This document shows, in pieces, positions 43,210-45,121 of a stretch of 54,688 bases of DNA; the first letter of the stretch is position 1, and the number at the start of each line of letters is the position of its first letter. A program made the translations under genes and the position numbers. Where the stretch lies: IMG/VR virus record IMGVR_UViG_2541047774_000008, positions 1-54,688 of that record. One strand, given 5' to 3'. A model generated the notes under the pieces. The model made no database searches. It was not told the DNA's origin and saw only the letters and a program-made list of their open reading frames with translations. Source of the stretch: a virus. Lineage: Duplodnaviria > Heunggongvirae > Uroviricota > Caudoviricetes.

Positions 43210-43505
43210 CGGTTGTCTCTGCTGGCGCAGCAGGTGCCAGTTGTTCAGGCTGGCGTGCGAATTGTAAACCAGAATGCCAGGAAAAAACAAAACCCGCCGA
43301 AGCGGGTATGCTAAAACAAACTGAAAGTAATATACCGGACTTGTAAAGGAACGATAGAATAATTATTGGATTAAACCCTGACTCAATCCAGATTTCATAG
43401 ACAACAACTACGGACTAATCATCACAGTCATGTTTGATAGACTTAGTCCACATTGGGTGAGGGTTTACGGCGTTTTCACTAATAATTTATCGTCCAAGCT
43501 ATACA

Positions 43506-43898
43506 CTACTGCCCTGTTTTAACGAAGTTTTTAAAGGAAACAACTGCCTGATAGGGGTTTGGTTGACAGCCAAACATATTATCGCAAAAAGGCTTGATGA
43601 AAATTCTTGAGGATCCATCTTCATTTGGCATTTTACTCACTTGATAAGCGAGGAATGGACTATTTGGAGAGGGATTATAAGTGGAAATTAGCGTGTCTGT
43701 CGCCGTTTGAATTTTCCATGAGGAATTATTAGCCAACCAGAATTGCGCTCGTTTCCAATAAAAGTCACATTGCTTTTCATCATTACATGTTAGTGGCTTC
43801 ATTGCTTCTGCTTTCAACGCTGGATCGACCTTTGCTGCACACCCTCCCAACATTACTGTTGCAATCATTACACCTGCGACTAAAACAAGTTTCTTCAT
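43506..43898 (-). CDS. lipoprotein (moron)
   Basis: 130 aa with signal peptide and lipobox MLGGC; AT-rich. Confidence 0.6.
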   Translation of the reverse strand: MKKLVLVAGVMIATVMLGGCAAKVDPALKAEAMKPLTCNDEKQCDFYWKRAQFWLANNSSWKIQTATDTLISTYNPSPNSPFLAYQVSKMPNEDGSSRIFIKPFCDNMFGCQPNPYQAVVSFKNFVKTGQ

Positions 43899-44041
43899 CT
43901 CCCTGCCCCATCAATAAAAGTTCGGTTCTCTAATAACTAGAGTTAATCAACGGAAAAAACGCCGAAGCGGGTTAAGTGCGGGTGCGTTGAGGATGCCTGA
44001 CACATCAGAGGTGGCGAGGGATTTCTCCCCCGCCAGGTCTC

Positions 44042-44197
44042 TTACTCCTCAGGTTCGTAAGCTGTGAAGACAGCGACCTCCGTCTGGCCAGTTCGGATTC
44101 GTACCTCGCAGAGGTCTTTCCTCGTTACCAGTGCCGTCACAATGACGGTTAAACAGATGACGATCAGGGCGATTAACATCGCCTTTTGCTGCTTCAT
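44042..44197 (-). CDS. hokD: Hok/Gef-family type I toxin
   Basis: ORF 44042-44254; ATG at 44197 gives 51 aa MKQQKAMLIALIVICLTVIVTALVTRKDLCEVRIRTGQTEVAVFTAYEPEE, preceded by AGGAG. Confidence 0.8.
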   Translation of the reverse strand: MKQQKAMLIALIVICLTVIVTALVTRKDLCEVRIRTGQTEVAVFTAYEPEE

Positions 44198-44434
44198 AGC
44201 CTGCTTCTCCTTGCCTTTCGGCACGTAAGAGGCTAACCTAGATTTGCCGTTCATAGATTGAGCCTCAGATTAATGTTAAGCGTCTTGCCGGACGCGTAAT
44301 GTTAACTGGGGCTTTTCTCTATCTGCCTTTCAGTGTTCATGCCTGAGACAGATAGCCTCAAGCACCCGCAGCCATTCTACTTAACTCACGTCACCTCGCC
44401 AATATGAAATCAATCAGAAAGGTGATCCATAAAA

Positions 44435-45121
44435 TCACTCCTTCTCTTCTTTTCCGTAGTGGAGTTGGCCAATTTTGATAAGAGGGCGTCCCTGAGATTT
44501 GCGGTGTAGATTGGTATCGCGCAGAGAATACACACAGCCACAATATTCCTGCTGATAGAATTTTTCGCGCTTGCTGATTTCAATCATACGGGACGAGCCG
44601 CCCTGCTTGCGCCAGTTATAATCCCAGTACACCATACCCGGATAATGCGCAACAGCTCGCCGCCCACACTCGTTAACCTGCTGCATATTTTTCCAGCGTG
44701 AAATGCCCAGTGAACTGCTGATCACACTGAAACCATTTTCAGCAGCGTACAACGCTGTCCGCTCAAAACGCATGTCAAAACACATGGTACAACGGATCCC
44801 CCTCTCAGGCTCCCATTCCATTCCTTTGGCACGTTCAAACCAGTTGTCGGTGTCGTAATCAGCATCGATAAACGGCACGCCGTGTTGTTCAGCAAAGCGA
44901 ATATTTTCATCCTTACGAATTAAATACTCTTTCTGAGGATGAATGTTCGGGTTGTAGAAAAAGATGGTGTAGTCGATTCCCGAGGCCTGAAGCGCCTCCA
45001 TCACTTCACCGGAACATGGAGCACAGCAAGAGTGCAGTAGTAGTTTGTTTGCCCCGTTTGGGAGCTCCAATTTAGGCCGTTTGAAATCAGCAATAGTCAT
45101 AAATATTTTTATTGGGGTCAT
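44435..45121 (-). CDS. QueH-like (DUF208) protein, putative epoxyqueuosine reductase
   Basis: 228 aa with [12 protein letters not shown] and CGC Cys motifs typical of DUF208/QueH. Confidence 0.55.

Follow-up and report, generated by a model that had tools for sequence, protein, structure and literature searches.

A HokD locus standing apart from relBE in a lambdoid prophage is predicted to be a complete hok/sok-type type I toxin-antitoxin module

Does a hokD gene that stands without relBE represent a toxin that has lost its partners, or does it bring a control system of its own? The question is raised by a locus at positions 44042 to 44254 (minus strand) of a virus-derived stretch of DNA of 54,688 nucleotides, hereafter the window. 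The initial annotation described the product as a Hok/Gef-like peptide of 51 amino acids, matched it to HokD of the Qin cryptic prophage of Escherichia coli K-12, where the gene lies directly 3' of relB-relE, and singled out the lack of an adjacent relBE pair as the feature worth notice. The family assignment holds, with Pfam HOK_GEF aligned to residues 25-66 of the reading frame along its entire profile (positions 1-42 of 42; E 3e-23; score 81.6 bits, cut-off 22), as does the match to Qin HokD, which is identical to the 51-aa peptide at every residue (100% identity) and which has served elsewhere as a toxic control (bioRxiv 10.1101/2025.08.07.668861). The lack of relBE is likewise real: no relB or relE homologue was found across the whole 54.7-kb window by blastn and tblastn, and the same 54.7 kb hold no second hok. 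Sequence comparison, which the initial annotation thought might expose a truncated remnant, gives the opposite result. The locus is neither an orphan nor a remnant and is a full-length copy, and the region 43954..44402 on the minus strand makes up, as judged from its sequence, a complete type I toxin-antitoxin module of the hok/sok type, belonging to the hokD/hokW allele group, a module that is already known, having been annotated and studied as hokD or hokW-sokW.

The ATG-initiated frame at 44042..44254 (minus strand) in the list of open reading frames encodes 70 aa, MNGKSRLASYVPKGKEKQA followed by MKQQKAMLIALIVICLTVIVTALVTRKDLCEVRIRTGQTEVAVFTAYEPEE, with the Hok part running MKQQKAML...EPEE, and is assigned to PHROG 251, 'MokW-like host killing' (E 8e-33). 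Within it, the hok toxin gene occupies 44042..44197 (minus strand), with its ATG at 44197 and a Shine-Dalgarno (SD) sequence, AGGAG, at 44207..44211. The in-frame extension upstream of hok, in which the initial annotation had suspected a mok-like frame, is indeed a mok reading frame that has frame and stop codon in common with hok: the open reading frame list, the Pfam match and the layout of mokW in phage 933W all point to this assignment, and mokC of the K-12 type is extended likewise. A mok SD, GAGG (44263..44266, minus strand), can be read from the sequence 8 nt 5' of the ATG at 44254. Of 80 related viral loci, 79 keep the mok frame open and one has ATA in place of ATG; the sample is biased, having been picked using this very protein. 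When set against 68 other unique sequences, the window copy has the common allele at all positions except one, a synonymous T at 44090 (Thr36, ACT) where those copies and strain E6 have C, and no change touches the promoter hexamers, SD, start codon or the regulatory elements tac, ucb, dcb and fbi described below. The codon for Tyr47 of hok is UAC followed by G (44056..44059, minus strand), which gives UACG, the TadA A-to-I editing motif; editing at this place would recode Tyr into Cys, the residue that HokA and HokB encode there, and hokD mRNA is reported to be edited at 6% in K-12 (PMC12214031).

The module sits in the nin region of a lambdoid prophage, between replication genes and Q. This prophage adjoins mtfA and tRNA-Ser in an orientation reversed relative to that in strain E6, and its head genes are mosaic in comparison with E6; over the 541-nt locus, E6 shows 99.8% identity and the same gene order. 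On the minus strand, the repressor and cro are followed by a YdaT-like gene, a replisome organiser, DUF977 (Ren-like), QueH and hok/sok, and then by a lipoprotein gene, a small ORF, DUF968, RusA and Q. The two neighbours are as the initial annotation described them: a lipobox protein at 43506..43898 and, upstream of hok, an epoxyqueuosine reductase of the QueH family (PF02677) at 44435..45121 (E 1e-65), both on the minus strand. The epoxyqueuosine reductase of E. coli itself is the B12-dependent QueG; no paper on a prophage-borne QueH in E. coli was found in the literature searched. Among 5426 complete E. coli genomes, the junction of QueH and the hok promoter recurs in 931, the junction of hok and the lipoprotein gene in 250, and QueH, hok and the lipoprotein gene occur together in 73. 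Across 80 IMG/VR contigs, selected with the query protein or allele and to that extent a biased sample, the module forms a self-contained mosaic block whose edges recur at 44387 or 44432 upstream and at 43954 or 43960 downstream, and in temperate phages, for example Tritos, mEp460, HannyBb and Rac, it is annotated as HokD, MokW or 'host killer protein'.

Two occurrences lie outside this setting. An E. coli-type hok/sok module with 96% identity is present in PP818812.1 (Actinobacillus pleuropneumoniae phage vB_Apl-pPE4), which is unexpected for the host and may reflect host mis-assignment or very recent transfer. Plasmids of ~92-123 kb in E. coli and Salmonella (for example L084), which we take from their size alone to be P1-like phage-plasmids, carry a hokD-type module of 87-88% identity, in which the tac/fbi pairing recurs and which has its own strong terminator; in L084, the ATG does not fall at the offset assumed for mok.

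An antisense control region is found in the very place where the initial annotation expected one. On the minus strand, 44192..44367 gives a match to the entire Rfam model RF01794 ('sok'; positions 1-157 of 157), scoring 111.9 bits where the gathering score is 59 (E 5e-26). The model stops at the hok AUG and represents the sense-strand leader of hok mRNA, containing the Sok target. Comparable matches were obtained for 933W, a P1-like plasmid, an IncF plasmid and hokC, and no such leader match was found in K-12 hokD. Reading this minus-strand 'sok' match as Sok itself was considered and rejected, with the model ending at the hok AUG and sokW of 933W being annotated on the opposite strand. The sole sigma-70-like site in 43850..44480 is the hok promoter, TTGGCG-17 nt-TAGAAT at 44374..44402 (minus strand), for which the G at 44367 is the predicted +1; its -10 hexamer lies 6 nt upstream of the first base in the Rfam match and is conserved in 933W and the IMG/VR copies.

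On the plus strand, the Sok promoter, TTGCCT-17 nt-TAACCT at 44211..44239, overlaps the hok SD and dcb of the opposite strand. It was found by homology and by a pattern search in which the motif gives a single match in the window, with 0 expected by chance; the generic promoter scan did not call it, its -10 (TAACCT) being a poor consensus match that scores only 3/6. The same promoter stands at the same place in 933W, where its end lies 6 nt ahead of the annotated sokW 5' end, and is kept in 80 of the 80 related viral loci; it is absent from K-12 hokD. The predicted Sok antisense RNA (~71 nt, ~44246..44316, plus strand) is the positional homologue of the annotated 933W sokW and agrees with it in 65 of 71 nt, the six mismatches being confined to the first 10 nt. 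Both the mok start codon and the mok SD are covered by this predicted RNA, which comprises a 9-nt free single-stranded 5' tail, a long hairpin (-31.4 kcal/mol, z = -5.2) and a U-rich 3' end. A generic terminator scan returned nothing after hok or Sok, and direct folding was used instead.

With its 5' end placed at the start of the Rfam match and its putative 3' end at a weak first copy of the terminator, the full-length hok mRNA would measure ~414 nt (43954..44367, minus strand). The RNA 44367..43954 has a minimum free energy (MFE) of -163.7 kcal/mol (z = -5.8 versus shuffles). In this fold, the tac element GGGUGCUUGAGG, the first 12 nt of the mRNA (44356..44367, minus strand), pairs with CCUCAA(C)GCACCC at 43992..43980, that is, with the fbi element CCUCAACGCACCC (43980..43992, minus strand), which is complementary to the mRNA 5' end (P ~1.00). 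The tac-fbi duplex comprises 12 bp and one bulge at -21.5 kcal/mol, an equally good duplex with the 3' UTR is reached by just 1 of 200 shuffled 5' ends, and Rfam consensus helix 1, in the tac region, is matched without a non-standard pair. At the same time, the mok SD pairs with AGCC-C at 44312..44308, within the anti-SD box ucb, AAGCCCCAG (44306..44314, minus strand). Folding of the truncated RNA 44367..44003, its truncation point at 44003 (cut back to a 3' stem-loop) having been picked by analogy with plasmid R1, gives a different arrangement: tac has exchanged fbi for ucb (44314..44308), and the mok SD is paired to dcb, GCCUC at 44229..44233 (minus strand), in a hairpin whose loop faces the Sok tail. 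The 3' stem-loop at 44007..44042 (minus strand) is predicted in both folds; with R1 as a guide (PMC9841398), it would form the end of the active, truncated hok mRNA and shield it. For R1, the rearrangement from tac/fbi to tac/ucb plus SD/dcb has been described, with the same GAGG as mok SD (PMC9841398). The tac-fbi pairing recurs at the same distance past the stop codon in 933W and a P1-like plasmid; in IncF hok, GGCGCUUGAGGCUU pairs with AAGCCUGAAGCGCC, compensatory relative to the window (GGCGC/GCGCC), and in a hokC interrupted by IS421 the pairing is lost. Taken as predictions, these folds show a sequence that would encode the whole hok/sok switch device.

Among the closest known systems is hokW-sokW (with mokW) of Stx2 phage 933W and Sakai prophage Sp5, with 92.6% nucleotide identity over 418 nt (window 43970..44387). 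Its Hok is identical to that of the window at 47 of 51 residues, the four that differ being C-terminal, and the in-frame 70-aa mok, the Sok promoter, the Sok hairpin and the tac and fbi sequences are common to both. The two differ in mok codons 2-5 together with the matching Sok 5' tail (MNGKS in the window, MLNTC in 933W), in the sequence 3' of fbi, and in position: the 933W module lies near the right genome end beside a YgiW-like gene, whereas that of the window lies in the nin region between QueH and the lipoprotein gene. R1 hok/sok (parB) and its IncF relatives have the same architecture, the same predicted switch from tac/fbi to tac/ucb, the same GAGG as mok SD and likewise a Sok promoter within the mok region (PMC9841398). 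However, only a 47-nt block of R1/IncF DNA can be aligned to the window, HokW and R1 Hok are 44% identical (PMC8621323), the module there is plasmid-borne rather than prophage-borne, and in an IncF locus (L085) the frame annotated as Mok (DUF5431) differs from that of hok and stops within the hok gene, whereas mok of the window is in frame. The chromosomal hokC/mokC (gef) locus shows 83% nucleotide identity over hok and a leader scoring 119.8 bits in Rfam, and its mok, too, is an in-frame extension. In one hokC example, L087 (E. coli M37H), IS421 (IS4-like) follows right after hok, from position 768 onward, and fbi is lost, whereas the window copy is uninterrupted; L087 is a naturally occurring case of inactivation of the IS type, as reported for K-12 (PMC12214031).

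Two stretches of the module stand out in these comparisons. One is the 47-nt block, 44193..44239, which spans both hexamers of the Sok promoter (-10 and -35), dcb, and the SD and AUG of hok. Of the 1461 plasmid records that gave a match, chiefly Klebsiella and E. coli IncF plasmids, most can be aligned in their hok loci to this block alone (87%), and the overlapping frame is annotated there as 'DUF5431 family protein'. Substitutions, by contrast with an otherwise ~97% conserved module, cluster at 44241..44255, corresponding to mok codons 2-5, the Sok 5' tail and the target-hairpin loop, where they form the discrete alleles MNGKS, MSHKC and, in 933W, MLNTC. The patch forms the loop opposite the Sok 5' tail, and its alleles might insulate co-resident copies against cross-talk, with relaxed constraint in the loop as the simpler alternative; two contigs of one IMG genome (L035 and L074) differ in their allele.

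From homology and folding we infer the transcripts, their processing, the toxicity in this context and the role of the module as follows. A weak constitutive promoter would give rise to a stable full-length hok mRNA of ~414 nt, with its 5' end (tac) locked to the 3' element fbi and with the mok ribosome-binding site hidden by ucb, a state that would allow zero translation. Slow 3' trimming would then take off fbi, upon which the 5' end would pair with ucb and the mok SD region would enter the target hairpin with dcb. The refolded RNA would be captured by short-lived Sok, a transcript of the other strand (44246..44316), and degraded by RNase III; once Sok had decayed, it would be translated instead, with mok translation leading to coupled translation of hok and the 51-aa membrane peptide depolarising the inner membrane.

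By analogy with hokW-sokW of phage Sp5, the most likely role of the module is to hasten growth arrest and lysis once the prophage has been induced; alternatively, it may serve prophage retention or phage exclusion. The Sp5 system has been shown experimentally to be a toxin-antitoxin system of type I, one which aids lysis after mitomycin C (PMC8621323). HokW arrests growth and is neutralised by sokW expressed from its own promoter (Takada et al., PMC8621323), in part dependent on RNase III and Hfq, and upon mitomycin C treatment sokW vanishes and HokW shows up in the inner membrane in a RecA-dependent manner (PMC8621323). With the mechanism left as it is, the module might instead stabilise the prophage by killing cells that lose it, or serve as an abortive-infection defence, in keeping with the ability of R1 hok/sok to stabilise plasmids and to lower T4 plating (cited in PMC8621323) and with a four-fold enrichment of hok genes in prophages (bioRxiv 10.1101/2025.08.07.668861). 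We regard such a role as possible though rather unlikely: when hokW-sokW was deleted, in the sole direct test of a prophage copy from this allele group, lysogen growth was unaffected, and after induction arrest came ~40 min later and phage release was halved (PMC8621323), and hok genes were not seen to be enriched beside defence systems. Against the reading of an active module, the chromosomal hokA, hokB and hokC loci gave no post-segregational killing in past tests. A complete hok/sok-type module, with the mechanism outlined above and most likely a lysis-helper role, is as a whole very probably the best explanation of the locus.

What follows hok on the minus strand is the one respect in which the locus is unusual, and it bears on how the module would be transcribed. 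The lipoprotein gene (43506..43898, minus strand) encodes 130 aa with a signal peptide and a lipobox, MLGG/C, as read from the sequence; it belongs to PHROG 16082, of unknown function, and searches for its family gave no Pfam or NCBIfam match and, in PHROGs, only families of unknown function. The gene is contained in a low-GC cassette (43308..43953, minus strand; GC 37-41%) that is flanked by a duplicated hok terminator, a 19-nt direct repeat with its copies 665 bp apart (43289..43972). Copy 1, ACCCGCUUCGGCGUUUUUU (43954..43972, minus strand), comes right after fbi and is degenerate, with a 3-bp stem and U6 (-3.1 kcal/mol; no call in the scan), and copy 2, ACCCGCUUCGGCGGGUUUU (43289..43307, minus strand), downstream of the lipoprotein gene, is intact and like that of K-12 (-10.9 kcal/mol). 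The cassette is missing from about 31 of the 80 viral loci, in which the flanks abut on a single terminator, and the weak terminator variant, a GG-to-TT change, is present in all cassette-bearing copies and was seen only in them. Because the terminator after fbi is degenerate (-3.1 versus -10.9 kcal/mol), many transcripts may run on for ~665 nt through the lipoprotein gene; and since cassette-bearing copies have the weak terminator and the promoter scan of 43850..44480 gave no promoter-like site before the lipoprotein ATG, this gene is plausibly read through from the hok promoter. We put forward, tentatively and with more doubt than conviction, that the cassette was inserted into the hok terminator, that the first terminator copy subsequently decayed, and that the lipoprotein gene has become the distal part of the hok transcription unit. 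If true, the hok promoter, likely active in the lysogen, would express the lipoprotein, and the hok mRNA would carry a tail of ~670 nt to be removed before fbi trimming, with altered timing of toxin activation as the outcome.

The same degenerate terminator could be taken to mean that the module, though structurally complete, is a silent relic passively carried by the prophage, in which Hok is never made, for instance because read-through transcripts are never processed; the predicted fold of the ~1.08-kb (1085-nt) read-through transcript, in which the tac-fbi lock survives, would fit such a state. We consider this improbable in view of the state of the module itself, every regulatory element of which is intact and agrees with the population consensus, and which is maintained as a discrete, ~97% conserved unit across mosaic phages. 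Furthermore, the loci known to be inactive are broken by IS elements or rearrangement, as seen in L087 and K-12 (PMC12214031), of which there is none here, and the close homologue hokW-sokW is active (PMC8621323). A functional module remains our preferred reading, and leaves the question of how it relates to the relBE-linked hokD of K-12.

In a four-way alignment, the match between K-12 and the window is confined to the stretch between 44211 (AGGAGAAGCAGGCUAUG...), which lies 14 nt ahead of the hok ATG, and the terminator; between the hok SD and the terminator, nucleotide identity is 97.7%. Beyond 44211 in the upstream direction, K-12 has the end of relE, fused at this point, and is devoid of the promoter, tac, ucb, the Sok target, the mok start and the Sok promoter, all of which lie upstream of 44211 in the window. 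K-12 Qin keeps a strong terminator, has rem where the window has the lipoprotein cassette, and further downstream continues as in the window with a small ORF, DUF968 (ydfU) and Q. The relBEF arrangement is absent from the window, where QueH lies upstream of hok and the hok leader, mok and sok are all present. Among the complete E. coli genomes, at least 80% of the 541-nt locus is present in 3511 of 5426, with a median of 2 and up to 9 matching places per genome, and the K-12-type relE-hokD junction is present in 1166 of 5426. The hok homologues except hokB have been reported to be inactivated by IS elements or genomic rearrangements (PMC12214031, in which the conclusion on hokD derives from Pedersen & Gerdes 1999). 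The K-12 copy is a remnant, because it matches only from 44211 and is without the Rfam leader and the Sok promoter, and on the strength of the alignment, the absence of the Rfam leader and the literature (PMC12214031) the relBE-hokD arrangement is a derived rearrangement that removed the hok leader, the mok start and sok. The missing relBE pair, correctly recorded by the initial annotation, is therefore not a distinctive feature of this locus, relBE-hokD being the derived minority state (1166 genomes versus 3511 with full-length modules). The converse reading, in which the relBEF operon is the normal home of HokD and the present copy has been displaced from it with loss of its relBE partners and of its own control, would accommodate a peptide identical to the one that follows relBE in K-12, but is refuted by the alignment and exceedingly improbable given that K-12 homology begins only at 44211, that it is K-12 that is without the leader, mok start and Sok promoter, that full-length modules outnumber the relE-hokD junction three to one, and that the K-12 state is described as the result of an inactivating genomic rearrangement (PMC12214031).

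Automatic annotation labels the locus only as 'hokD' and omits mok and Sok, and therefore such loci could be mistaken for orphan toxins. The current understanding of type I toxin-antitoxin systems is unchanged by this locus, and what it offers is a correction: HokD beside relBE without sok is a truncated K-12 peculiarity, and the common natural form is a full hok/sok module in lambdoid prophages.
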